In this document: positions 15,060 through 42,120 of the stretch, piece by piece
Layout: the number at the start of each line of letters is the position of its first letter
Position numbering within the stretch: the first letter of the stretch is position 1
Assembly: GCA_963764725.1 (NCBI GenBank)
Contig: CAVXTM010000016.1
Coordinates: 277,598-341,597 of the forward strand
Origin: an uncultured Gammaproteobacteria bacterium
GTDB taxonomy: Bacteria > Pseudomonadota > Gammaproteobacteria > JACCXJ01
Reading direction: 5' to 3'
Length of the DNA: 64,000 nt
Notes under the pieces: model-generated
The model's input: the letters and a program-made list of their open reading frames with translations, nothing else
What the model was told of the DNA's origin: nothing
The model's database searches: none
Translations under genes and position numbers: made by a program

Positions 15060-15653
15060 ATGAGCCCACGCGCAGCACAGGTACAACGCGATACGCAGGA
15101 AACCCAGATCGGCGTGACCTTGGATCTCGATGGCGCCGGTCGGTCGGATCTCGATACCGGGATCCCCTTTCTCGACCATATGCTCGATCAGGTGGCGCGG
15201 CACGGGTTGATCGACCTCAAGATCGAAGCGCGCGGCGATCTCCACATCGACGCGCACCACAGCGTCGAAGACATCGGCATCGCGATCGGTCAGGCGCTCG
15301 CGCAAGCGCTCGGCGACAAGCGCGGGATTAGGCGCTACGGCCATGCATACGTCCCGCTCGATGAGGCGCTGTCGCGGGTGGTCATCGACTGTTCGGGACG
15401 GCCCGGTCTCGAGTTTCACGTGGATTTTCCGCGTGCGCGCGTCGGGGATTTCGATGTCGATCTTTTCTACGAATTCTTCCACGGGTTCGCCAACCACGCG
15501 CGCGTAACGCTTCACATCGACACGTTTCGCGGCCGCAACGCCCATCATATTATCGAGACCGTCTTCAAAGCCTTCGGTCGCGCCTTGCGCATGGCCGTCG
15601 AGTCCGACCCGCGGCTTGAGGGCGCCGTGCCCTCGACCAAGGGCAGCCTCTGA
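15060..15653 (+). CDS. hisB: Imidazoleglycerol-phosphate dehydratase
   Basis: [18 protein letters not shown]...[21 protein letters not shown]...[10 protein letters not shown]...[14 protein letters not shown]. Confidence 0.9.
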
Positions 15654-15680
15654 GAGCTTGTGAATAAATCTACTGCGCAG
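15651..15680 (+). repeat. Boundary repeat copy TGAGAGCTTGTGAATAAATCTACTGCGCAG (contains the hisB stop)
   Basis: One of five copies of a roughly 28-nt motif (see findings). Confidence 0.6.
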
Positions 15681-20535: not shown

Positions 20536-20563
20536 CCGCAGTAGATTTACTCACAAGCTCTCA
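20536..20563 (-). repeat. Boundary repeat copy (minus-sense TGAGAGCTTGTGAGTAAATCTACTGCGG, contains the accC stop)
   Basis: 27/30 identical to the hisB copy. Confidence 0.6.
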
Positions 20564-21904
20564 GGTCAGTCCCAGCTTCTTTTCGAGATAATGGATATCC
20601 ATAGCGCCCGCGCGAAATCCTTCGTCATTCATCATATTGCGATGCAAGGGCAGGTTGGTCTTGATCCCGTCGATCACAATCTCAGTGAGGGCGTTAATCA
20701 TGCGCGCGAGCGCGATGCTTCGGCTCTCGCCGTGAGCGATGAGCTTGCCGATCAAGGAATCGTAGTAAGGCGGAACCGCATAGCCTTGGTAAATATGCGT
20801 ATCCAAGCGGATCCCGGGACCGCCGGGCGGATGAAATAAAGTGATCGTGCCGGGCGAGGGCATGAAGGTTTCGTGATCTTCGGCGTTGATCCGGCACTCG
20901 ATTGCATGACCACGGAGGATGATCTGGTCCTGGCGATAACTCAGAGGTTCGCCGCTCGCGATGAGGATCTGTTCTTTGACGAGATCCACCCCAGTGACCA
21001 TTTCGGTGACTGGATGCTCCACCTGAATGCGCGTGTTCATTTCGATGAAGTAAAACTGAGCATCTTGATAGAGAAACTCAAACGTGCCGGCGCCGCGGTA
21101 GCCGATTTCCTGGCAGGCTTGCACACATCGCATGCCGATAGCGTCTCTAATTTCCGCGCCGAGACCCGAGGCGGGCGCTTCTTCGATGACCTTTTGGTGG
21201 CGCCGCTGCGTCGAGCAATCGCGTTCCCCGAGGTGTATGGCGTTGCCGAGGGTGTCGGCGAGGACCTGGATCTCGATGTGGCGCGGTGTCTCAAGGTATT
21301 TTTCAAGATAGACGGAACCGTTTCCGAAAGCCGCGCGGGCCTCCCCGCTGGTAAGGGCGATGGCATTGAGCAGCGCGGCTTCGCCATGCACCACTCGCAT
21401 GCCGCGCCCTCCCCCGCCTCCCGCGGCCTTGATCATGATCGGATAACCGATCGCGCGTGCGATCCGGAGGTTCTCGTCGACATCGACGCCGAGGGGTCCG
21501 TCGGAACCAGGCACGCAGGAGACTCCTGCTTGTTTCATCACGCGGATGGCGGATACCTTGTCGCCCATCAGCCGGATCGTTTCCGGCCTCGGGCCGATGA
21601 AGATGAAACCGCTTTGCTCGACGCGCTCGGCGAAGTCGGCGTTTTCCGCGAGGAACCCATAACCCGGGTGGATGGCCACGGCGTCGGTGACCTCGGCGGC
21701 GCTGATCAAGGCTGGGCCGTTCAAATAACTTTCCGCCGAGGGCGCCGGACCGATGCACACCGACTCGTCGGCGAGACGCACCGGTTTTAGATCGCGATCC
21801 GCGGTCGAATGAACCGCAACGGTCTTGATCCCCAACTCGCGGCAGGCGCGTAAAACTCTGAGCGCGATCTCACCCCGGTTGGCTATCACGATTTTGTCAA
21901 GCAT
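20561..21904 (-). CDS. accC: Acetyl-CoA carboxylase biotin carboxylase subunit
   Basis: [33 protein letters not shown]... ATP-grasp. Confidence 0.95.
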
Positions 21905-21906
21905 GG

Positions 21907-21936
21907 CTCAGAGATTGTGAATTAATCTACTGCGCA
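21907..21936 (+). repeat. Boundary repeat copy TCAGAGATTGTGAATTAATCTACTGCGCAT abutting the accC start codon
   Basis: Same motif family. Confidence 0.55.
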
Positions 21937-22032
21937 TCCCGATCGCTGCGGCGCGTGCTCGCTCGCTCCTCGCCTATCTACCGGATATGTCTCGTCGCTT
22001 GCTCCGCGGCTCCTTGCGCTCGGGCTTGCTCG

Positions 22033-22060
22033 ATAAGATTTATTCACAACCTCTTAGTTA
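22033..22060 (-). repeat. Boundary repeat copy (minus-sense AACTAAGAGGTTGTGAATAAATCTTATC) in the accB-accC spacer
   Basis: Core GAGGTTGTGAATAAATCT; inverted relative to the 21907 copy. Confidence 0.5.
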
Positions 22061-31705: not shown

Positions 31706-32077
31706 CTACCCCGCCGTAGACACACGGGCGAGGGCGTCGCGGATATCCACGACGGCTGCGAGCGGATCGACCAGGCAGGCAGGTTCGTGAGCGATCCCGG
31801 CCGCCGATAATCGGTAGGCGATCGCCGGGCATGCATGGACCACGCGCACACGCGCGCCGCTCCGCCGCGCCCACTGACAAAACATAATGAGCCAATTGAG
31901 ACCCGAGTCGCGCGTGTCCGTCACATCGGCCAGATCGATGATGTAGTTCTCATGGCGGTTTCGCTCCGGCTCGCAATACTGCCAGAGCGCGAAACCGTGC
32001 GACAAATCAAAATGACCCATGGCGCTCAGCGTGACCGTCTTGCGATCCGCCGATAACGTAATGGTAAAGGCTGCCAT
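31706..32077 (-). CDS. STAS-domain protein (anti-sigma-factor-antagonist-like)
   Basis: 123 aa, MAAFTITLSADRKTVTLSAMGHFDLSHGFALWQY...; length and profile fit STAS/SpoIIAA. Confidence 0.5.
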   Translation of the reverse strand: MAAFTITLSADRKTVTLSAMGHFDLSHGFALWQYCEPERNRHENYIIDLADVTDTRDSGLNWLIMFCQWARRSGARVRVVHACPAIAYRLSAAGIAHEPACLVDPLAAVVDIRDALARVSTAG

Positions 32078-32187
32078 CGTCGTCTCCTAGCGTTTCGAGA
32101 TTAATAGCACCTGCATTTAACCCTAGGCCCGTACGCCGCGCAATATGACAAATTGCCGCGCGTCAATTCGTCGCAGCTTGAACGCCA

Positions 32188-32214
32188 TGGGGTGCGACAA
32201 TTTGTCGCATTTTA
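32188..32214. repeat. Copy 1 of the palindromic repeat GGGGTGCGACAATTTGTCGCATTT (minus orientation); two degenerate half-site copies lie at 32144-32176
   Basis: Core 17-bp palindrome TGCGACAA-T-TTGTCGCA; the same 24-mer recurs at 41024-41047 and 41158-41180. Confidence 0.6.
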
Positions 32215-32430
32215 AAAGGCGATCGCCATTGCTATGATTGCCGGGGCTGAAGGACAGAAGATGCGAATATCGCAAAACGGAGAAGGAAAGAAAGGCCGCG
32301 CCAGAGGCGCGGCCATAAAGCGCGGTGGTGAGAGACGAGTGTCGAGGCCGCTAAACCTGAAAGACGCTCGAATCTTCCACTACGTGCCGGAGCCCTACGG
32401 CCTTGCTAGGTCGCTGGCCCTATGCACAGC

Positions 32431-32913
32431 TTAGGCTACCTTCTTGACTTCCCGCACCAAGGCGGCGCAGGCCTCGGCACAGTCCGCACAGCTCTGGTGC
32501 TTGGAGGCGTGTTTGCGGCATTCCTTTTCGCAGTCTGCACAGACCGCGGCACACGCGTTGGCGAACGCCTTCGTGTGTGCCGAATTACTTGCGCTCAACT
32601 GTGCCAGGGCATTGCACGCCGCGATGGTCTCTTGTACCGCGACCGCGCAGCTCGCGAGCGACGTGTCGCCGCCCTTGAAGGTGTTGATGCAGTGATTGAG
32701 GCAAGCGTGCCCCTTGGCCATGCAGGTTTCGGCGGCCATCATGAGGCCGCTGTACTGCCAGCTATGGTGATTGGCCGCCGCGAAGGCTCGCCCGGTGCCG
32801 GTCATGAGCGCGGCCGCGCCCACCGCCGTGGCGCCGGCGAGGAATTTCCTGCGCGCGGACTGACAGGGGGCGTCACCGGTCTCCGGATGGGTATTTGAAT
32901 GTAACTCGGACAT
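32431..32913 (-). CDS. Tat-exported four-helix-bundle Cys-rich (Csp1-like copper storage) protein
   Basis: Twin-arginine signal SARRKFLAGATAVGAAAL; the mature part is Cys-rich with helical C-x3-C/C-x2-C spacing (ACLNHCI, CAVAVQETIAAC, CAAVCADCEKEC, CADCAEAC). RBS AAGGAG precedes the ATG at 32911-32913. Confidence 0.6.
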   Translation of the reverse strand: MSELHSNTHPETGDAPCQSARRKFLAGATAVGAAALMTGTGRAFAAANHHSWQYSGLMMAAETCMAKGHACLNHCINTFKGGDTSLASCAVAVQETIAACNALAQLSASNSAHTKAFANACAAVCADCEKECRKHASKHQSCADCAEACAALVREVKKVA

Positions 32914-33175
32914 ATCAGCTCTCCTTTCAATATGGATGGATAAAGGGTTGCGCAGGCGTGTAACCCCAGTGTCGCTAGGGTGTTGCGGCGCTTTCGGTTG
33001 ATGGGATGGCGGAGGAGAGCTGATTTTCCTGCCCATCCCGGACGAAAGCGTCGCACCTTCTCGGTACGCGGATCGCACGGAGGCGCAAACCCGCCAGGGA
33101 TTATATCAGACCGCTAGATCTCTGGATACTATTTATCTTCTATCTTCGCCGGGCGGCGTTCTGATGGCGCTGCGC

Positions 33176-34729
33176 TCAACGAACCAACAGATCGGTACCG
33201 TACCAGCCGACGATGACGTCCCGGTAATGTTCGGCCTTCCGGGTTTGGAGTCGTTCGAGGGGATTGAAATTGTCCGTCAGAGTCACGCCTTGGGTCTCGT
33301 TCACCGCGACGATCCGGTTCTTCAGCCACGCTGCTTGCTCTGCTCGGAGTCCCGGGGAGTTGAGGTCGATGGGTCGGCCAGCCGCGAGGAAGATGAAGTC
33401 GTTGAAATCCTTGCCGGGTTCGGAAATAAAGACCGAGTGATGGGGAAACACCTGCGCGATGGTGCGCCCGACGGACGCCAGGGCGGCATTCTGGCCGCCC
33501 TCCGAAAAGGCCACGAAATTAAGAGCGAGAATGCCCTGGTCTGACAGGAGCCCGCGCAGTTGAGACAAAGTCTCGACGGTCAAGAGGTGCACCGGTTCCG
33601 ATCCTCCGGTGAAGCAATCATGGATGATCAAGTCGTAAGGGCCGGTCAAGCGGCCGATTTCATAACGTGCGTCACCCACCATGGCTTGGCCCGTGGGTTC
33701 AAACCCAAAGTATTCGGACGCGGCGCTCGCCACTGCCGGATCGATCTCCAAAGTGTCGGTCACGATCCCGTAGCGGTCACGCAGCGTCGTTGCCATATGG
33801 CCGGCGCCCTGGCCGATGAGCAAGGCCCGTGTCATGTTGGGCGCCAAGGCCGGAATCAAATGAACGATCTCCTGGTAGGTGAGCCGGTTGTCGCCACTCG
33901 ATATGCTGGCGGCGCCGATCGTCGAAGCATCCGACATGAGAAGACGAAGATCGCCTTCTCTTTGATCAATCACCCGCACCCAACCGTACAGGCTTTCCCG
34001 CTCGGAACGGATTTGAAAGGGTTCCCCGCCGGTGTAAGCACGCCCCGCGCCGATGGCTTGGGGCAGCAATCCGATCCCGATCGCGGCCAAGAGAACACTG
34101 GGCAGCACGGCGGCGGTTCGCCCCAAGCGCTTTTGCTCATAGATCGCCACGGCCACGGCCAGCGCGAGCAGAGCTATACCCAGACCGATCAGGATCTGGC
34201 GTGAGCCCACCAAGGGAAACAGAAAGAAGCCCAATACCAAGGTGCCGACAACGCTCCCGAGCGTACTGACGGCATAGATCGAGCCGGCGCTGGAACCAAC
34301 GCCTTCCAAGCGTGAGGTCGCGAGCTTGATGGCATAGGGCCCAACCATGCCTAGCATAGTCAGACTGGGCGAGAACAACACCAGCGCGCTCACGAAGGCG
34401 CCCGCTCGCAGGCCCAAAGGGTCGGTCGCCATCAAGACCGGCCGGGTTACCCACGGGATTAAGAGTGTAAACAGGGCCGCGAGTGAAATGACGAGTGAAA
34501 GTCCGGTGCGCTTCGCCCGGTCAGCCCACCGGCCGCCGGCAAAATAACCAATGGCAAGCGCGATCAACGCCACGGAAATCAGCGATGACCAGACGTAGAG
34601 GCTCACGCCGTAGAACGGGGCGATGATGCGCGTACCCAGAAGCTCGATTACCATCACCGCCGCTCCGGTCAGGAACACGGTCAGATAAAGCCCGGCACGT
34701 TCGTAGACGTGCAGTGGTTTGTAAGACAT
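33176..34729 (-). CDS. Spermidine-synthase-family protein fused to an N-terminal polytopic membrane domain
   Basis: About 200 aa with roughly seven TM helices, then the spermidine-synthase fold (LLIGQGAGHMATTL...DLIIHDCF). Confidence 0.7.
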   Translation of the reverse strand: MSYKPLHVYERAGLYLTVFLTGAAVMVIELLGTRIIAPFYGVSLYVWSSLISVALIALAIGYFAGGRWADRAKRTGLSLVISLAALFTLLIPWVTRPVLMATDPLGLRAGAFVSALVLFSPSLTMLGMVGPYAIKLATSRLEGVGSSAGSIYAVSTLGSVVGTLVLGFFLFPLVGSRQILIGLGIALLALAVAVAIYEQKRLGRTAAVLPSVLLAAIGIGLLPQAIGAGRAYTGGEPFQIRSERESLYGWVRVIDQREGDLRLLMSDASTIGAASISSGDNRLTYQEIVHLIPALAPNMTRALLIGQGAGHMATTLRDRYGIVTDTLEIDPAVASAASEYFGFEPTGQAMVGDARYEIGRLTGPYDLIIHDCFTGGSEPVHLLTVETLSQLRGLLSDQGILALNFVAFSEGGQNAALASVGRTIAQVFPHHSVFISEPGKDFNDFIFLAAGRPIDLNSPGLRAEQAAWLKNRIVAVNETQGVTLTDNFNPLERLQTRKAEHYRDVIVGWYGTDLLVR

Positions 34730-34756
34730 GTGGATTGAACAGGCCTTTACCGCCCC

Positions 34757-35731
34757 TCAGGGTTCATCGAGCACGGCAAAGGCCGGCGCATCCCGCGCGC
34801 GGCTCGGTGGTGCCACGCATCCTTCGCTACTGGCTGGCGCCGCGAGCGAGCCACCGGCTTCACCGTGCACGTCTACCCAGAAATGCGGCAAACCCATGCC
34901 CGCCAGCCATGCCGGGCCGGCAGCCTCCTTGAGCATGGCAATCGTCGAGGCACTGCCCGCGATGAGACACAGATCGCCAACTACGCTGACCGACGCCAAG
35001 TGGCGCACCGGCCAACCGGTTTTCGGGTTGAGGATATGACCGTAACGCACACCATCGAGCACGATGCAACGCTCGTAGTCACCGCTACTGGCAAGCCCGC
35101 CGTGGTGCAACGAGACCGTTTGTATGAGGGCCCCCGGACGACGGGGATGGCGTATGCCTATCCGCCACGGGTTGCCATCCGGTCGCGGCCCGATGACCTT
35201 GATGTCGCCGCCTAAATTGACGTGGCCGGATCGGGCGCCGGCCTCGTAGCATAGCGTTGCTGCCCGATCGACGGCGTATTCCTTGACGACACCGCCGAAA
35301 TCAATCTCCATGCCCGGCAGTGGAAATTCGAGAACGGGAGGTGTCCAGCGGAGCCGGTGCCACCCGACCTTGCCGAGTAGGCTTTGGATCTGCGCCCCAT
35401 CGGGCAGCGCGCCTCGATCGAAGCGCCACGCGCGACGCAATATACCAGAGCTGATGTCGAAGAGCCCATCGCTCTCACGGTAACAGGTCGCGGCGTAATT
35501 GAGCAGCCCAACAGTCTCTTGGTCTACGGAGATGCTTCCCCCACGGGATGCCACGCGATTGATCTCCGATAGAAAGCTGTCGCTGCGAAAGCGCGAATAA
35601 CGCGCTTCCAGCCGGTCGACTTCAGCGATGGCGATGCCCGCAATGCGCTCGGCTTCTGCATGGCTTGTGGCAAAGAGCTGGATCTCACAGGGAGAGCCCA
35701 TCGCCTTGAAAGCCAAGCGGTAAGACCTCAT
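34757..35731 (-). CDS. apbE: FAD:protein FMN transferase (ApbE family)
   Basis: AMGSPCEIQLFA...EINRVAS...GGVVKEYAVDRAA...SGDYERC... are ApbE motifs. The start is taken at MRSYRLAF. Confidence 0.75.
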   Translation of the reverse strand: MRSYRLAFKAMGSPCEIQLFATSHAEAERIAGIAIAEVDRLEARYSRFRSDSFLSEINRVASRGGSISVDQETVGLLNYAATCYRESDGLFDISSGILRRAWRFDRGALPDGAQIQSLLGKVGWHRLRWTPPVLEFPLPGMEIDFGGVVKEYAVDRAATLCYEAGARSGHVNLGGDIKVIGPRPDGNPWRIGIRHPRRPGALIQTVSLHHGGLASSGDYERCIVLDGVRYGHILNPKTGWPVRHLASVSVVGDLCLIAGSASTIAMLKEAAGPAWLAGMGLPHFWVDVHGEAGGSLAAPASSEGCVAPPSRARDAPAFAVLDEP

Positions 35732-35896
35732 GCCGTTCATGTTCAAAACCACGTTCGCGGTCGATGTAGCCCGGGTCGAACGCAGCCCCGCCCCGCCGCG
35801 GTGAGTGCCCGCGACTAGTCCCGGTCGCTCAAGCGGTGGCGGAACGTAGCTACGCCACATATTCTCAGGCACATGACGCACGCTAAACAAGGCCCA

Positions 35897-36901
35897 TCAA
35901 AACGTCAGGCTGAAGCTCACGAACAGTGAGCCGTCACGTTCGAGCTGGAACCCGTTGAAGTCGTCCTCCACGGGTTGCAGCCACTCGACGCTCAAACGGT
36001 TGTCCTTAAGCCCGGCGATCGGAATCTCGGCGCTGAGCCCGAAGCCCACGTCCCAGAACTGCCCGCCGTAGTTCTGCGGGAAGTCCACCGGGCTCAGTTC
36101 CGAGTGCACGTCGTTGAACTCGCCCGTGATCTCCCCTTGCGTCGTGTAAACGCCGCGCACCGAGGCGGAGAGCCAGTCGAACAGGCCGATGCTTCCCCAG
36201 GCGGTGGCCTGGAACTGATTGCCCAACGCATAGCCCGACTCGTTCGCGTTCTCGAGGCGATCGATGCCGCTCACTTGCCCCCCCCACGACCAGCGCCCCC
36301 ACGCGCCCGTGTAGGTGAGGTTCGGCAGCAGATCCCAGGTGCCGCTGCCGAGCTGCATGCCATAGTGATAAAAGCCTTGATCCGTTTGATGGCTGCGTCT
36401 GAGCTGCTCGTCGACGGAGCCGGTCGGTGCGCTCACGCCCAGAGCCAGGTGCAGGTGATGTCCGGGCACATCCAACAGTTTGAAGAGCGCGTACATGGAG
36501 GTGTCACCGACGCCGCCCGTGGCTTCGGAGTGGAGCACATGGTGCTGTTCACTGCTGTCGAGCTGAGCGCCTTCGAGGGCCTGCATCGACATCTCCATGT
36601 CCACGAACTGCGGCATGAGCATCAGGTTCAGCCAGTCGGTCGGGGCGTACATGATGTCGATCATGTGCATGTTCATGGTGTGGTCGACCGGCTTCACTTT
36701 GCACGGCACCGAGCCACAGCCATTGCTGGTGATGACGGCATCGCCGACGGCGTCCGAACCGCGCAGGATGTTGCCGTCCTGACTGTGGTACATGTAGCGG
36801 TAGTCGACCATGAAGTCGCCGGCCTCGGGCAGCATGTGGTCGAGCATGACACCCGCCGGCGCGTGGCCGTGGGCGTGCGACGTGGCTATCGTGGGCGTCA
36901 T
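35897..36901 (-). CDS. Outer-membrane beta-barrel protein with a His/Met-rich N-terminal region (possibly CopB/PcoB-like or MetA-pathway porin-like)
   Basis: Ends ...SLFVSFSLTF (C-terminal aromatic). N-terminal SHAHGHAPAGVMLDHM... and Met clusters MNMHMIDIMY, MLMPQFVDMEMSMQ. Its start ATGA overlaps the stop of the upstream ORF. Confidence 0.5.
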   Translation of the reverse strand: MTPTIATSHAHGHAPAGVMLDHMLPEAGDFMVDYRYMYHSQDGNILRGSDAVGDAVITSNGCGSVPCKVKPVDHTMNMHMIDIMYAPTDWLNLMLMPQFVDMEMSMQALEGAQLDSSEQHHVLHSEATGGVGDTSMYALFKLLDVPGHHLHLALGVSAPTGSVDEQLRRSHQTDQGFYHYGMQLGSGTWDLLPNLTYTGAWGRWSWGGQVSGIDRLENANESGYALGNQFQATAWGSIGLFDWLSASVRGVYTTQGEITGEFNDVHSELSPVDFPQNYGGQFWDVGFGLSAEIPIAGLKDNRLSVEWLQPVEDDFNGFQLERDGSLFVSFSLTF

Positions 36902-37195
36902 GGTGCGCCGCCGGCAGCGGACAAGGCTGCGTCGAGGCTGACATTCAACGCCGCATTGACCTGATAGTAGTTGAAATCGGCATAGTCGCCCTCACCACCT
37001 CCGCCGAGCTTGAGCCCGCCCTCATGGGTGTAATACTCGAAACCGGCCTCGAGACTGATCCCCCTAGCGAATTCCTTGCTCACGATCAATCCGCCGCTCA
37101 AGGCCCCATAGCCCGACAGGCGGTGGTCGCTGGAGAAGTTGGCCGGAAGTTTTTTCGGATCGAACGGGATGATTGTGACGTCTCCCGTCAGGTCA

Positions 37196-38460
37196 TCAAA
37201 AATGAACTGTTTGGTATGCTTGCCTGGAGATGAGAAACGGCTGATAGAAATCGGCGGCGTCTTGCGAGTAATAGCGAATCCAGGGCATCACGGTCCAACC
37301 CCGGCCTAGCGGTTGACCCCAGCTCGACTCGAGGGTGTGGGCATCGATCCCCCAATCATCGGAGTAGAAGCGGTATCCGAGATGCAGGGCCGCATTCAAT
37401 GGTTCGACATACTGCACATAGCGCGCGTCCCAAGTCCATTGGTTACGCGTATCGGGCCGCTGTTCCAGGAGGGCCTGAACTTGCCCAAAAAACCCGCCGG
37501 GAGGTGCCAAGAACTGTTGCTCGGGATCGATGAACGCGACCTCCATCACCTTGTAGGGGTTCGCCAGATATCCTGTGCTGCGGGTATAACCGAGGGTGGT
37601 CTCGATGAGCGAGTCATTGGTCAGGACCTGCGTCAGACCAAAACGCGTAGCCCAATCCTGTCGATTGCCCTCCAGGGTGTCGATGCTTAAATCCGTCGTG
37701 TTTGGCACCGGCGTCTTTTCAATCTGGTCCGTGTATGCGGAGGTATCGATGTAGGGAAGAGCGTCGTGATCGAGTATGGCCTCGGTGTCGCTGGCGGTGT
37801 AACTCAAGCCCAGGTTCAAGGTGGTGCGCTTCTGATTGAGGTCCCAGCGCCCGCCCAGGCTGCCCCATCGCGATTCATAGTCGTTCTCCAGGGAGATGCC
37901 ACCGCCCACATCCAGCGCCGCCTCGTTCCACTCGTAGCTCAGCCCGAAGTCCCCCTGCTTGCGCGCCTCGGGTGAGGCGAAGGAGATCGTATCCACCAAT
38001 TGCCCGTTTTTTTGAAAGAGCTGGTTACCATCCTCGTCGAAGAGTACTTCGAGCGGGTTGAATTGAGAATCGAAAAACAGATCACCATTGATGAAAGGCG
38101 TCGCCCCGGAGACCCCATCCGGGGCTGTGGGACAATTCCCCCCCGAACAATTAAAGCCACCGGAAACAAGTCCCTGCGGTGCGGTGGCGATCGGCGTGGC
38201 CCCGGACCAGGTGTCCTGGACGTAGTTGGCAAAGAACTTCAGCCGATCGAAGAGCGTGAGGCTAGCGCTGCCATGGAGGCTGTCCACCAGGATAGGATCG
38301 AACGCGCTCTTCACGCCGAAGAGGTTACGTTCACTCTCTTGGTAGCGGCCATACTGAAAGTTGAAATCGTCACCCTCGGCGGCATGAGCAGGTGAGGGAG
38401 TCAGGCCGGGCAAGGCCAGAGCGGCGGCCGTCAGCGCCCGCGAGGATGCGCTTGCCTGCG
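37196..38460 (-). CDS. DUF3570-type outer-membrane protein
   Basis: TTG start, signal peptide TQASASSRALTAAALALPGLTPSPAHA; ends YQTVHF followed by tandem stops TGATGA. Conserved partner of DUF4266, tlpA and apbE. Confidence 0.6.
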
Positions 38461-38546
38461 TCAATGATTGCGGTCCGGTGGCCGACCGCCGCCCGAAGCG
38501 ACGCGGTAAAAGTAGCCCTGCGAGGTGCCGAAATGCGCCGCGCAGG

Positions 38547-38771
38547 CTAGTAACAGCCACACCCGCCGCCGGCGGTGGACCCACCGGCCAATGCGGCCTC
38601 GCGGCTCATGTAGGTGTGCACGCGTAAGGCGCGCAACGCGGGGTTGGGTTCCAAGGCCATGTGCGGCTTGGCGAGATTGCCGCGTTCCCACGGGGCTACC
38701 GGCGCGCAGCCCGGTAGCCCGATAGCCAGCCCAAGTAGAAGCGCCGTCAGCACCCAGTTAGATTTTTTCAT
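38547..38771 (-). CDS. DUF4266-type small lipoprotein
   Basis: MKKSNWVLTALLLGLAIGLPGCAPVAPWERGNLAKPHMALEPNP...GGGCGCY; lipobox plus the characteristic C-terminal GGGCGC. Confidence 0.7.
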   Translation of the reverse strand: MKKSNWVLTALLLGLAIGLPGCAPVAPWERGNLAKPHMALEPNPALRALRVHTYMSREAALAGGSTAGGGCGCY

Positions 38772-38801
38772 ATAGGGCTTTTCGTCGAACCGACCGAGCG
38801 C

Positions 38802-39296
38802 CTATCCGCCCTCGGGACGCTCCGCCAACAACTGTTCCACCAGCCCACGGAGCTGCTCAGCCTCTCCGCGCCGAAAGCCTAGGTGCACGTGGCGAATGAT
38901 ACCCTGGCGGTCCACCAGATAGGACGACGGCATCGCTTGGACGCCGAAGTCTCGGGGACACTGCCCGTCCGCATCGACAGCGACGGTGAAGCTGGCCGGG
39001 TGTTTTTCAAGAAAGGCCTTCGCATCGTCGGGTTTCTCATCCAAGTTGATCCCCAGAACGTGCAAACCCTGTCCCCGCAACTCGCTGTCCAGATCGTTCA
39101 AGAACGGAAAGGACTGTGCGCAGGGGGAACACCAGGAGGCCCAAAAATCGACATAAACAACCTTGCCGCGCAGTTGCCGCATGTCATAGCGTTGTCCATC
39201 GCCGACCGGGGTCAATGAACAGTTAGGCGCCGCCTGACCAGCTTCGAAACTATAGACGTTCGAATAAACCGCGAGCGCCAGTGCGGTGAGAAGCAC
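38802..39296 (-). CDS. TlpA-family thioredoxin / thiol-disulfide oxidoreductase
   Basis: VDFWASWCSPCAQSFPFL. The GTG start is preceded in-frame by TAG and an 18-codon ATG-initiated extension (MMAKDYDFLPLRISATRS). Confidence 0.75.
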   Translation of the reverse strand: MLLTALALAVYSNVYSFEAGQAAPNCSLTPVGDGQRYDMRQLRGKVVYVDFWASWCSPCAQSFPFLNDLDSELRGQGLHVLGINLDEKPDDAKAFLEKHPASFTVAVDADGQCPRDFGVQAMPSSYLVDRQGIIRHVHLGFRRGEAEQLRGLVEQLLAERPEGG

Positions 39297-39989
39297 CTAT
39301 GAGCGGGTTGCACTAATTCGCAACGGCAGGAAGTCATAGTCCTTAGCCATCATCTTCGGATCCAAGTAGCAGCCCGCGACCAAGCGCCGCCAAGCGCCGA
39401 GCTCAGCGAATCACCGGCTTACTGATTCTGCGTCTGGTAATTGACGTCCCGGTGTGAACCCCCGTAGCGGTTTCGCAATGGTAATTCGAGCGTGTAATTA
39501 TTTACGCCGCCGCGGATTTATCGACGTTATACGATGTACGCCCCGACGCCACTGTTATTGTAGCACCTTTGAGGACTATACGCTGCGTTTCCACCGATGG
39601 GATCCGTGCTGGTCGTGGAATGCCGCCCTTGTCGCGTCAACCTGCACCAGTGACGAGCCCGCAGTGTCGTCCTTCACGCGTGATCGTGAAGACGGACAGA
39701 GTTCGTGGAGCACGTGACGGGTAGATCATCGGTCGCGCCCGCCGCGGAAAGGAGCGATCCGATCTTTGAATCGCCAGACGCGATACGGCGTGTGCCTACC
39801 GCGACCAGCAACGATGCGTGCGAATGCGCTCTTAAAGAAAGTATTTTTCATACATATTCATAATAGTCTCCTTCAGTCGTTAATCGGGAAAAACGGTGAC
39901 CTGGGTATACTAGAGAAGCACTGACGGTCGGGTACGGCGGGAAATCGCCGGCTCGAGGAGAGCGGAGCCTGCCCGTTACGTCCCACTCG

Positions 39990-40560
39990 CTACTCACGTC
40001 GCGGTGCTCGCACGGCGCGATGTCCTATCTCCTCCAGTTTCATGGCGGCCAATACACGCACCGTCTCGTCGGTGTCAGCCAGCGCGTCTTGAAGTAGTGC
40101 GGCGCTCTCCGCATCTGTGCCGGCAGCTGTCCACCGCCATCAGCCTCACCGAAGCGTCGCTATCGCCCAGGGCACTGCGCAGCACATTCATGGCCTCGGT
40201 CTCCGCCATCTTTCGCCAAGGCGTAAACGCCCTGCGCCCGCACGCTCCCGTCCTCGTCCGTCAGCGCGGTCCGAAACACCGCTTGTACCGCAGGATCGTT
40301 GCGTTTGCTGCTCGCAGCCAGGCTGCCCAGCGCCTGCATCCGCGCTTCGGATCATCGGCCGTGCTCAGGTCCATGAGCATATTGAATCGTCATGCTCTGC
40401 CGCCGCGGGATCTTTACTCGTCGCTTGCTGCGGGGCCGCCCGCGAACATTCCGCACCGGTGTCTCCACAACGACCCCATTGCTACTACTGCTACCGTCGG
40501 GAGGTCCGGGCGGCTCCTAAAAGCCACACGTCCGAAGGCAGGGATCGGTCGCAGACTCCG
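39990..40560 (-). pseudogene. HEAT-repeat (PBS-lyase-like) protein gene decayed by frameshifts and stops
   Basis: Minus-strand translation across shifting frames gives DPAVQAVFRTALTDEDGSVRAQGVYALAKDGGD..., EAMNVLRSALGDSDASVRLMAVDS|AGTDAESAALLQDALADTDETVRVLAAMKLEEIGHRAV. Confidence 0.4.
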
Positions 40561-41023
40561 CTCTCTCGGGGGCATAGCGCACTATGCTGCGCGGCGTCAC
40601 GCCCAAAAAGACACTCGAGTGCACGCGTGAGGCGTCATGCGCTGGCAGGAGAGCCGTGACCACGCCTTCGGGCGTCACTACGTCATGGAAGCGGGTACCC
40701 GTTTTCTGCCGAATTCGCCGAGCACCTCTGTCCACGGGGCCCGCGTGACATTCAAGCTCATCAGTGCCGCGATGGAGCTCGATTTCCACCGATGCGGAAG
40801 GCCCTGCTTTCAAAAGCGCTCGAGACGGCGTGTCAGGCCCTGCGATAACATGGCTGTTCCACAGCATCATTCCCGGCACCAACGAAAGCAGCCCGACCTC
40901 CGCCAGCCCGTCTCTTACGCCGCGTTCGAGTACTGCTCATCGAATAAACACCCTGCGTGGCCATGTCTGCTGTCGTTCTAATTCTCCGACCGTTCGGAGT
41001 CTATGATTCGTAGCCGCGCTTGT

Positions 41024-41047
41024 AAATGCGACAAATTGTCGCACCCC
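41024..41047. repeat. Copy 2 of the palindromic repeat AAATGCGACAAATTGTCGCACCCC (plus orientation)
   Basis: Same 24-mer as at 32188-32214; forms an inverted pair with 41158-41180. Confidence 0.6.
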
Positions 41048-41157
41048 CACACTCAACATCGAGACCGGGGAGCGGCAAGTCACCGGTACGCTATCCTGCT
41101 TTTGCCTTTCGTTAATCCCGTAGTTTATATAATAGAACTCTGGTCATGGAATCAGTT

Positions 41158-41180
41158 CCGGGGTGCGACAATTTGTCACA
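41158..41180. repeat. Copy 3 of the palindromic repeat (minus orientation), CCGGGGTGCGACAATTTGTCACA
   Basis: Inverted relative to copy 2, about 110 bp away, giving a MITE-like unit 41024-41180. Confidence 0.55.
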
Positions 41181-41336
41181 TTCACACGCGATGCTCAGTG
41201 AGATAGTCTTCTTAGCAGGGAACAGCTAGTGATGCAGGGTACGACCAGTTGTCTCTGGCGTGCTTTTTAGTTGGTAGAAACCAGTTATATCTGTTCTGTG
41301 AATCCATAAGTCAATACAGGAACCATTTATGCCAAG

Positions 41337-42120
41337 CTTAAACATAAGAAGACTGACGATGTGCTCGCTGACGACCTTGCTGTGCACCGCAGGGCCGAAT
41401 GTCTTTGCCCACACCGGCGTTCAGAATGCGGCTGACCGCAGGGACGACGACCTATAACGGTTTCACGATAACGCACGGCTGTGGCGGCCATGATGAGACG
41501 AAGCCTCCGTTGAAGGTGTTGGGACAGTCGGCGGTGTTTCCGTTCGGAGTCGCCGTGTGGACGAACCTCAACCCACCGGTGAAATCATACCGACGGGTGG
41601 CCAGGGTATCGTCAGCGAGGACAGATGATTTTATCACTCTCAATGTCGGCGGTATTCAGGATAACGATCCCTTCGCAAAAACAGAGGAAGAGACGGATGA
41701 TCTTGAAAACGTGCGTGCGCTCAATTGGAAGAATGGCAAACTAGCGACCAACCTGGTCGGTATACCCGAGTGGCGGGCATCGGCGCCGACCATTCTGGAT
41801 AATTGCGTGTCGGCATTGCACGTGCGTATCGCGGTTGCCAACTGGTGCAAAAAGAACGCAAACGAAAAGAACGACCATGCTAACAACCGGGCCGACTGGT
41901 GGTTCACGGGACCGGACCAGACCGGGAGCACGCAGTTCGTCGATCCCGATCTGGTTCAGGAGGACTTCTGGACGACATTGACCGTTAACAACCCGGGCAA
42001 CCCGGACGCCCCTGCATGCACCGGGGAGACTCGCGAGGTTGCGGTCCAGCCGACGGGTGCGGACATCGATACCTACCTGCCATACAAGCCGTTCACCAAG
42101 AATCCGGGACCGTATTGATC
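41337..42120 (+). CDS. Exported protein with a mature N-terminal His and a frameshift just after the signal peptide; low GC
   Basis: ATG at 41337 gives MPSLNIRRLTMCSLTTLLCTAGPNVFA|HTGVQNAADR and then stops. The body continues in the +1 frame as ...TTTYNGFTITHGCGGHDETKPPLKVLGQSAVFPFGVAVW... to 42120. GC is about 52-55%. Confidence 0.45.

Follow-up and report, generated by a model that had tools for sequence, protein, structure and literature searches.

Response regulators of the RegA family bind sites upstream of the −35 element (PMC5506826), and the sites recovered for Rhodobacter capsulatus RegA by chromatin immunoprecipitation (ChIP) include GTGACAATTTGTCCC at cydA and CGGACAAAATGTCGC (PMC5359404). 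In group-1 systems, regA is co-transcribed with the Sco homologue senC, and RegA binds copper in vitro (PMC9147068); copCAB is under RegR control (PMC4064962), and in Methylomonas a TonB receptor, tonB–exbBD and feo depend on regA for their expression, as a mutant shows (PMC13274454). In cells that lack haem-copper oxidases, RoxSR is active (PMC5436846), and the RoxR-activated ddcA promoter of Pseudomonas putida carries a RoxR element directly upstream of its −35 (PMC6680623). Little is understood of how Gram-negative bacteria decide on copper import, and in methanotrophs and nitrifiers the search for the regulator of copper-dependent physiology has been a long one. Here we analyse a short palindromic repeat in a 64-kb stretch of DNA from an uncultured gammaproteobacterium (contig CAVXTM010000016.1; the whole stretch is hereafter referred to as the window), which an initial annotation had described as either a shared operator or a small mobile element. 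From its sequence, its position and the genes that accompany it in other genomes, we predict that each copy of the repeat is probably a site, built into a sigma-70 promoter, at which a dimeric response regulator of the RegA/PrrA/ActR/RoxR type binds; regulators of this type are the DNA-binding partners of the redox-sensing kinase RegB/RoxS.

The repeated unit is 23 nucleotides (nt) long (GGGGTGCGACAATTTGTCGCATT) and occurs exactly at 32189–32211 on the plus strand (copy A) and at 41025–41047 on the minus strand (copy B), and with a single mismatch (G to A at 41178) at 41160–41182 on the plus strand (copy C). The three-copy repeat described at the outset is thus real, with coordinates 1–3 nt away from those first given. 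The unit was matched 0 times in 100 dinucleotide-preserving shuffles, compared with three copies in the window. Its 17-bp dyad, TGCGACAA-N-TTGTCGCA, had been called perfect, which holds for copy A (TGCGACAATTTGTCGCA, 32193–32209, centre 32201) and copy B (41027–41043, centre 41035) but not for copy C, where it has one mismatch (41164–41180, centre 41172); the core reads GCGACAATTTGTCGC in copies A and B and GCGACAATTTGTCAC in copy C. A scan of the window for the 17-bp dyad with up to three mismatches found four sites, against 0.29 expected. The copies remain alike for about 13 nt past the dyad on one side only, and the repeated unit is therefore asymmetric. Two degenerate copies reported near copy A proved to be genuine near-matches to a 15-mer: GCGGCAATTTGTCAT at 32145–32159 on the minus strand, with three mismatches, and GCGTCAATTCGTCGC at 32160–32174, with two mismatches and no strand assigned. 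The latter reads GCGTC-N5-GTCGC, which fits the form GCGNC-N5-GNCGC, and is kept as GCGGCAATTCGTCGC in the USCg_Taylor contig L056.

We surveyed one genome per species (596 Gb) with the asymmetric 20-mer GGTGCGACAANTTGTCRCAT and analysed 8-kb loci around the matches. The 20-mer was found in at least 120 loci, against approximately 9 expected by chance according to our calculation from the 596 Gb searched. Among the 120 loci listed, to which the locus counts below refer, nearly all carriers are Beta- or Gammaproteobacteria; they include Nitrosomonas, Nitrosospira, Gallionella, Nitrotoga, Rhodocyclales, Methylococcales, Cycloclasticus, Francisella, Idiomarina, Pseudoalteromonas, Cellvibrio, Porticoccaceae, Bermanella, Nitrococcus and others, and span the orders Nitrosomonadales, Gallionellales, Methylococcales, Thiotrichales, Alteromonadales, Cellvibrionales and others. 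Each locus has one to four copies, mostly one, and in a few loci the copies form inverted pairs approximately 113–126 bp apart; Nitrosomonas europaea ATCC 25978 is among the carriers, with sites in L042 and L051. The copies are not scattered, but precede promoters and recurring gene families, and what had been proposed as a small regulon appears instead as a promoter module conserved across many orders.

To describe this module, we aligned 123 non-redundant copies in one orientation. In the resulting profile, the repeat is followed by a sigma-70 promoter whose distance from it does not vary: the dyad ends one base ahead of the −35 hexamer (TTsCCA/TTGACA), which begins at the last T of the 20-mer and is separated by a 17-bp spacer from a −10 element of the form TAtaaT, with its A in 89% and its final T in 87% of the copies. 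This fixed layout places the dyad centre near −44, and the centre base, read in the direction of transcription, is T in 95%. As read from the alignment, the conserved flank of the repeat is the predicted promoter itself. Both the fixed promoter geometry and the conservation in at least 120 loci support the operator alternative of the initial annotation.

The window copies follow the same layout. Promoter A (32210–32238, plus strand) has a −35 element of TTTTAA/TTTAAA at 32210–32216 and an extended −10 element, TGcTATGAT, with its hexamer at 32233–32238 and a predicted start at approximately 32245. Promoter B (40998–41026, minus strand) combines TTTACA (41026–41021), a 17-bp spacer and TAGACT (41003–40998), with a predicted start at approximately 40991, and promoter C (41181–41209, plus strand) combines TTCACA (41181–41186), a 17-bp spacer and TAGTCT (41204–41209), with a predicted start at approximately 41216. 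An independent consensus scan called promoter A (TTTAAA-16-TGcTATGAT, 32211–32238, plus strand) and promoter B (TTTACA-17-TAGACT, 41026–40998, minus strand); promoter C was read by the spacing rule and lies under the threshold of the scanner. By this reading, B and C are predicted to be divergent promoters placed back to back; each has a site of its own, and the 112 bp upstream are common to both. Similar back-to-back pairs, 113–129 bp apart, flank divergent genes in loci L022, L073, L075 and L096, and L073 has two such pairs with spacers of different length.

The best candidate for the regulator, judged from sequence, is a RegA/PrrA/RoxR-type two-component response regulator and not a classical metal sensor. 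A literal search of the literature for the motif led to a table of R. capsulatus RegA ChIP-seq sites and to no description of the motif otherwise. The core, GCGAC-N5-GTCGC, fits the RegA string SSGNVRDNHYSNCSS in full and departs by one mismatch each from the RegR box GNGRCRTTNNGNCGC and from the PrrA string YSCGGC(5)GWCRMA (all three quoted in PMC5506826), and it shares the left half-site and spacer, GCGNCAATTT, with the RoxR consensus GCGGCAATTTAGAGC quoted for Burkholderia (PMC9104464). The window copies take the general form GCGNC-N5-GNCGC with an A/T-rich centre, and the sites lie upstream of or adjoining the −35 element, as RegA-family boxes do, in the 123 aligned copies and in the promoters called at A and B.

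Furthermore, a candidate for the regulator is encoded beside the site in other genomes. Of the 120 8-kb loci, 19 encode a RegA-like protein whose MHRRTLQRKL helix is invariant, which we estimate to be approximately 50 times the rate for a single-copy gene, and 17 encode a RegB-like kinase. In at least 11 regBA loci, the site lies in the upstream region of regB or heads an operon that contains regB–regA. The best NCBIfam match of the regulator is ActR/PrrA/RegA (E = 2e-52) and that of the kinase is ActS/PrrB/RegB (E = 7e-68), and close homologues of the regulator are annotated by the Joint Genome Institute as RegA, with a receiver and a Fis-type helix–turn–helix (HTH_8) domain. The kinase carries GGASNPF, which we take to match the quinone-site motif GGXXNPF, and the position that we take to correspond to Cys156 of group-1 RegA is occupied by histidine in the site-linked regulators. 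The invariance of the site across orders appears to mirror that of the MHRRTLQRKL recognition helix.

The genes that follow the site belong, as far as their families can be assigned, overwhelmingly to copper acquisition, delivery or storage, or are regB–regA itself. TonB-dependent receptors of two classes are the first downstream frames in 22 and 17 loci, and for one of these classes the second-best match is TIGR01778, 'TonB-dependent copper receptor' (E = 1e-43, below the cut-off). A family of exported proteins that includes the product of the window gene at 41330 is the first downstream frame in 19 loci; MbnP (TIGR04052, above the cut-off) also lies downstream of the site, and other first frames encode SCO1-like, DUF3570 and TlpA-like proteins, among more. 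A census of all frames within 8 kb added PCuAC (PF04314), SCO1/SenC (PF02630), an MbnH-like di-haem peroxidase, Csp1 (7 loci), a BNR-like protein (22 loci), ApbE, DUF4266 and a SpeE-like membrane protein. These recurring families therefore describe a regulon for copper acquisition, delivery and storage, and the copper link that had been proposed from the window is supported by the genes that accompany this site elsewhere, in over 100 genomes. The sampled sites had no terminal oxidase genes next to them; the targets found (SCO1, PCuAC, Csp1, MbnP/MbnH, YcnI-like proteins, TonB receptors and ApbE/DUF3570) fit respiratory and redox physiology or cofactor supply.

A further exported family of 154–169 amino acids, in which a histidine follows the signal peptide (AHGGG or AHDQTG; for example, in L011, L021 and L115), stands behind the site in 15 loci, mostly of Nitrosomonas. 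It has no Pfam or NCBIfam match and is a candidate second periplasmic copper binder.

A mechanism can be proposed in which phosphorylated RegA, bound at about −44, would contact RNA polymerase and activate these promoters. Copper shortage would lead to poor electron flow through the haem-copper oxidases, poor electron flow would activate RegB/RoxS, which would phosphorylate RegA, and phosphorylated RegA would switch on the genes for copper uptake and copper chaperones, closing a homeostatic loop. We infer both activation as the sign of regulation and the respiratory-chain signal by analogy with the described systems.

The same regulator at the same site might act with the opposite sign. RegA bound from about −52 to −36 would then repress by blocking contacts of RNA polymerase with the −35 and UP elements, and the genes would be derepressed when RegA is inactive. 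Repression is conceivable because promoters B and C have near-consensus −35 hexamers (TTTACA and TTCACA, respectively) and promoter A an extended −10 element; moreover, PrrA represses fdp, and RoxSR represses cox in Pseudomonas aeruginosa. However, the −35 element is weakly conserved over the 123 sites (TTsCCA, 0.2–0.75 bit per position), as is typical of activator-dependent promoters, the same layout is RoxR-activated at ddcA in P. putida, and expression of tbdr, tonB and feo falls to 3–23% in the Methylomonas regA mutant. We therefore regard repression as unlikely, if worth keeping in view.

Several points weigh against the assignment to RegA. The match to the consensus is weak on its own because published RegA/PrrA sites are degenerate. 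Neither regA nor regB is present in the 64-kb window, and a search for RegA homologues revealed none on the 513-kb source contig. Both proteins found beside the site elsewhere miss the equivalog cut-offs (177 versus 250 bits for the regulator and 229 versus 350 bits for the kinase) and are thus members of their families in the broad sense only, and co-location with regBA would also be expected if regBA were a target of another factor. In Methylomonas, RegA was not detected by ChIP at the RegA-dependent TonB-receptor promoter (PMC13274454). The −35 elements of promoters B and C match TTGACA at five of six positions, so that an activator is perhaps not needed. Because the survey pattern is asymmetric, it favours sites that abut a −35 element. 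Scans of metagenomes and viral contigs with the core only, which were meant as orientation-unbiased controls, show that the bare 17-mer core is not specific: the promoter layout is present in only about 22 of the 120 metagenome loci listed, one of which (L156) is the same locus as copy A, and the remainder include low-GC phage-like contigs and an iteron-like array.

One alternative is an operator of a different regulator, such as a dedicated copper sensor, with regB–regA simply belonging to its regulon. Such a reading would suit a regulon that is so strikingly copper-centred, the position of regBA downstream of the site, as if a target, in several loci (L070 and L101) and the ChIP result from Methylomonas. 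Nevertheless, no other likely family of DNA-binding regulators stood out in the 40 largest neighbourhood clusters, part of which were checked against Pfam; on a reading of its sequence, one of them, cluster 17 (7 loci), looks like a cyclic-nucleotide-binding protein. The core also fits all three published RegA-family strings, two of them with the single mismatch noted, as well as the RoxR consensus in part, and the invariance of the site across orders runs parallel to that of the MHRRTLQRKL helix. Classical copper sensors use sites of different type or position. We accordingly consider a different regulator improbable, and a RegA/RoxR-type regulator the preferred reading.

A mobile origin is rejected. 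The initial annotation had noted that copies B and C have the geometry of a miniature inverted-repeat transposable element (MITE), of which they would be the terminal inverted repeats; the pair is inverted, 112 bp apart, and its arms extend to 36 nt at 86% complementarity. Yet the flanks, AGCCGCGCTTGT and CACACGCGATGC, share no target-site duplication, the inner 112 bp is unique within the window, only three copies occur in 64 kb, and copy A is solitary. In addition, loci in distant orders hold one to four copies of the 20-mer each, always equally far from the −10 element and before the same gene families, and the similar back-to-back pairs in four other loci include, in L073, spacers that differ in length. 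The MITE-like geometry is explained by the predicted arrangement of B and C as back-to-back divergent promoters. The inner segment, described as AT-rich and about 110 bp long, has the expected length, but it is just moderately AT-rich, with a GC content of 48% against 60% for the window.

That the palindrome is a phage or plasmid relic, a horizontally acquired operator array or iteron, is the least credible of these explanations, for although viral contigs are enriched in the 17-bp core and metagenomes contain it in iteron-like arrays, the copies in the window have the GGGG...ATT flanks and −35/−10 geometry of the chromosomal class, lie among conserved chromosomal genes syntenic with USCg_Taylor and adjoin no phage genes.

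The palindrome has, in addition, a distribution outside the promoter module. In its bare form, TGCGACAANTTGTCGCA, it is over-represented in viral contigs (IMG/VR, L241–L360), with at least 120 loci of median GC content 0.37. In these contigs and in low-GC metagenome loci (L128, L140, L143, L158 and L185), TTGACA or TTGACT often follows directly, and the copies are otherwise embedded in arrays of related imperfect dyads; the half-site 7-mers are approximately 6.5 times commoner than random. The viral copies may be phage promoters that use a RegA-type regulator of the host, or operators of phage repressors. The same palindrome also occurs in a different context, the iteron-like array aaaag-TGCGACAATTTGTCGCA-gaaaag-tgagactgtcgcac-aaaag-tgcgacagtcgcc, which recurs in metagenome loci L162, L177, L180, L186, L197, L210, L223, L229 and L236.

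Other kinds of element were considered for the repeat and set aside. In MerR-type (CueR-like) operators, the dyad lies between the −35 and −10 elements, which are separated by a spacer of 19–20 bp; here, the dyad lies upstream of the −35 element and the spacer is 17 bp, and a metal-sensor operator of this type was rejected. Sites for CRP/FNR, NtrC, Fis, Fur-family proteins, CopY, CsoR and GlrR, as well as a sigma-54 promoter and a sigma-32 −10 element (CCCCAT), were rejected by eye on spacing or sequence. An intrinsic-terminator scan called none of the repeat copies, although it did call the nearby csp1 terminator at 32294–32314, and an intrinsic terminator or a repetitive extragenic palindromic (REP) hairpin was rejected on this basis. 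The window contains no transfer RNA genes that could mark an integration site and no Rfam families at gathering score; matches near the sites are at chance level only.

Copy A lies between a STAS-like gene and csp1. The csp1 gene (32431–32913, minus strand) encodes a four-helix-bundle copper storage protein of the Csp1 family with a twin-arginine translocation (Tat) signal, an assignment with firm support (TIGR04401, 119.6 bits; cut-off 100), and is the last gene of a minus-strand cluster, whose operon is ended after csp1 by the strong intrinsic terminator at 32294–32314 (minus strand; a 9-bp GC stem followed by a T-run). The STAS label of the 123-residue product of the neighbouring gene (31706–32077, minus strand) finds some support in Pfam matches, but these stay below threshold (E = 0.0014 and 0.0039), and the domain assignment is weak. 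Copy A had been placed upstream of this STAS-like gene, but the perfect repeat is oriented away from it, and promoter A fires toward the 3′ end of csp1. By eye, a weak promoter-like element that reads leftward, TTGCGC-17-TTAAAT, can be made out in front of the STAS-like gene, where it abuts the degenerate site at 32145–32159; the consensus scan did not call a leftward promoter for this gene. By position, only this degenerate site could serve such a promoter, and the arrangement is weak and putative.

Of the three promoters, A comes closest to consensus, yet no conventional gene lies ahead of it on the plus strand. Its site, −35 and −10 elements are invariant in the USCg_Taylor contigs L056 and L156, which are approximately 9–12% diverged. 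A 22-bp insertion or deletion follows the predicted start, and positions 32294–32430 are approximately 95% conserved, above the surrounding coding sequence. The product of promoter A (candidate region 32261–32434, plus strand) could be an antisense RNA to csp1, a small RNA or a basic small open reading frame (ORF) of 57 codons. In this ORF, three of three changes at the centre are synonymous, whereas eight non-synonymous changes lie at the ends, and it has no homologues outside the lineage and no domain match. The RNA downstream of promoter A has a fold z-score of −3.1, mostly from the terminator hairpin. The USCg_Taylor assembly lacks approximately 45–65 bp of the STAS-like gene (L056, 1202–1219), whereas a 99.8%-identical metagenome contig keeps the segment (L156, 6190–6252); the gap is either an assembly artefact or a population variant.

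Promoter C is predicted to drive the gene for a YcnI-like exported protein rightward, and promoter B a HEAT-repeat pseudogene leftward. The former gene, previously placed at 41337, begins instead at ATG 41330 (41330–42118, plus strand; assigned by homologue comparison and a fold model) and is frameshifted: the signal peptide and the sequence AHTGVQNAA are in the frame of 41330 and the rest in that of 41399, with one frameshift near 41425–41435. The frameshift site is not a homopolymer run, and sequencing error is therefore not an obvious cause. An intact homologue that carries the same site is found in L074, a relative approximately 90% identical in the neighbouring glnE region. The predicted N-terminal histidine of the mature protein withstood comparison with 116 homologues, in which the signal-peptidase context A|HTGV.D and a second histidine, in HGC, are conserved. 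This family matches no Pfam or NCBIfam model. Its AlphaFold (AF2) model has a predicted local distance difference test score (pLDDT) of 90, and Foldseek matched it to Cu-bound YcnI (8um6_B; probability 1.00, template modelling (TM) score 0.58 by target) and to 3esm (probability 1.00, TM score 0.66), with E values of approximately 1e-4. YcnI (DUF1775) proteins are Ig-like beta-sandwiches in which an N-terminal histidine of the mature protein ligates Cu. With YcnI 8um6_B and the related protein 3esm as its best-supported solved relatives, the window protein is predicted to have a YcnI-like fold and is a candidate copper binder.

The pseudogene (40068–40882, minus strand) was recognized by tblastn with a homologue in L073, which contains HEAT_2; it is the first frame downstream of promoter B and has two in-frame stops and two frameshifts. 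The first genes behind promoters C and B are thus both damaged, yet their operators and promoters are intact. A 0.7-kb segment without a reading frame separates the pseudogene from a TlpA-like gene, and within it a 10-codon mini-ORF (MNMYEKYFL*, 39832–39861, minus strand), for which AAGGAG forms a strong ribosome-binding site, may encode a leader peptide or have arisen by chance. Beyond it, the minus-strand cluster is transcribed from 39296 down to 33176 and then into csp1; it encodes a TlpA-like redoxin (38802–39296), DUF4266 (38547–38771) and DUF3570 (37196–38584) proteins, an outer-membrane channel-like protein with no Pfam match (35897–36901), ApbE (34757–35890) and a SpeE-like membrane protein (33176–34729), all on the minus strand. 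Window scans found no other site upstream of 39296, and promoter B therefore probably drives this cluster, with the genes from tlpA to csp1 probably forming one operon. The families of the cluster recur beside the site in 8–19 other loci. Clusters of ApbE, DUF3570, thioredoxin and DUF4266 have been described as a flavinylated system for extracytosolic electron transfer, with no known function (PMC8238504).

The window also holds a separate repeat family, CTGAGAGCTTGTGAATAAATCTACTGCG, which is unrelated to the first, at 15650–15677, 20537–20564, 21907–21940, 22036–22057 and 700–755, in direct and inverted copies up to 96% complementary and with a related 56-nt arm. This family may represent either a further operator or a short repeat element.

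The window by itself holds an ordinary set of transcription-factor sites, and these would be RegA/RoxR boxes of a known kind; the new part is the breadth and invariance of the module and its copper association. In the literature searched, we found no description of this breadth, this invariance or the near-exclusive association with copper acquisition. A broader proposition, which we hold with even credence, is that RegB/RegA may be a master switch for copper acquisition in Beta- and Gammaproteobacteria, among them ammonia and iron oxidizers and methanotrophs. A near-invariant RegA box fused to the −35 element would drive TonB-dependent copper receptors, MbnP/H, YcnI-like proteins, PCuAC/SCO1, Csp1 and the flavinylated periplasmic ApbE/DUF3570 reductase system, and copper need would be sensed indirectly, through haem-copper respiratory electron flow, and not by a repressor that binds the metal; in addition, an antisense or small RNA under RegA control would be made from promoter A opposite csp1. 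If the module is a RegA box, the signature GGTGCGACAATTTGTCRCAT with its promoter would flag copper-acquisition genes in uncultured lineages, including families of unknown function such as the YcnI-like proteins with an N-terminal histidine, the 154-residue His-start proteins, the BNR-like proteins and DUF3570/DUF4266/ApbE. It would also offer a testable coupling of respiratory-chain status to copper uptake, and an unusually clear consensus for regulators whose sites in Alphaproteobacteria have been hard to define.

Among known elements, MITEs and REP repeats are similarly short, have an internal dyad and sometimes form inverted pairs; the repeat described here differs in lacking a target duplication, in not being high-copy, in its fixed position relative to the −10 element and in its conservation across orders. 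Class II activator sites (CRP/FNR at −41.5, lambda cI OR2 and the pho box) likewise place a dimer site against or over the upstream edge of the −35 element, a location that would imply direct contact with RNA polymerase and therefore a strict requirement for position. Their symmetry is 5-6-5 or 5-4-5 with a centre at −41.5, whereas here it is an odd 8-1-8 at about −44, for a protein of a different family, and the likeness is one of mechanism by analogy only.

The RoxR element of Pseudomonas and Burkholderia is closer, as it shares the host phylum (Gamma- and Betaproteobacteria), the left half-site and A/T spacer (GCGNCAATTT) and the position directly upstream of a sigma-70 −35 element, and the −10 sequence TAGACT is common to PP_3332 and promoter B. 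The known targets of RoxR are terminal oxidases (cio, cox, cco and cyd), ddcA and PP_3332, whereas here they are copper genes; in the literature searched, there was no report of copper-uptake receptors, MbnP, YcnI-like proteins or Csp1 as RoxR targets. The alphaproteobacterial sites of RegA, PrrA and RegR (ActR) have in common with the present ones the GCGAC...GTCGC half-sites, a 5-nt A/T-rich spacer and a location upstream of the −35 element, and the regulators share the Fis-type HTH with the MHRRTLQR helix and the genetic link to the Sco/SenC chaperone and regB–regA. However, the published sites are degenerate and variable in half-site spacing and position, and ChIP-seq has yielded no strong consensus, whereas the site described here is a perfect palindrome that hardly varies and keeps to a single position, about −44, in front of a regulon dominated by copper uptake instead of photosynthesis, respiration, and CO2 and N2 fixation.

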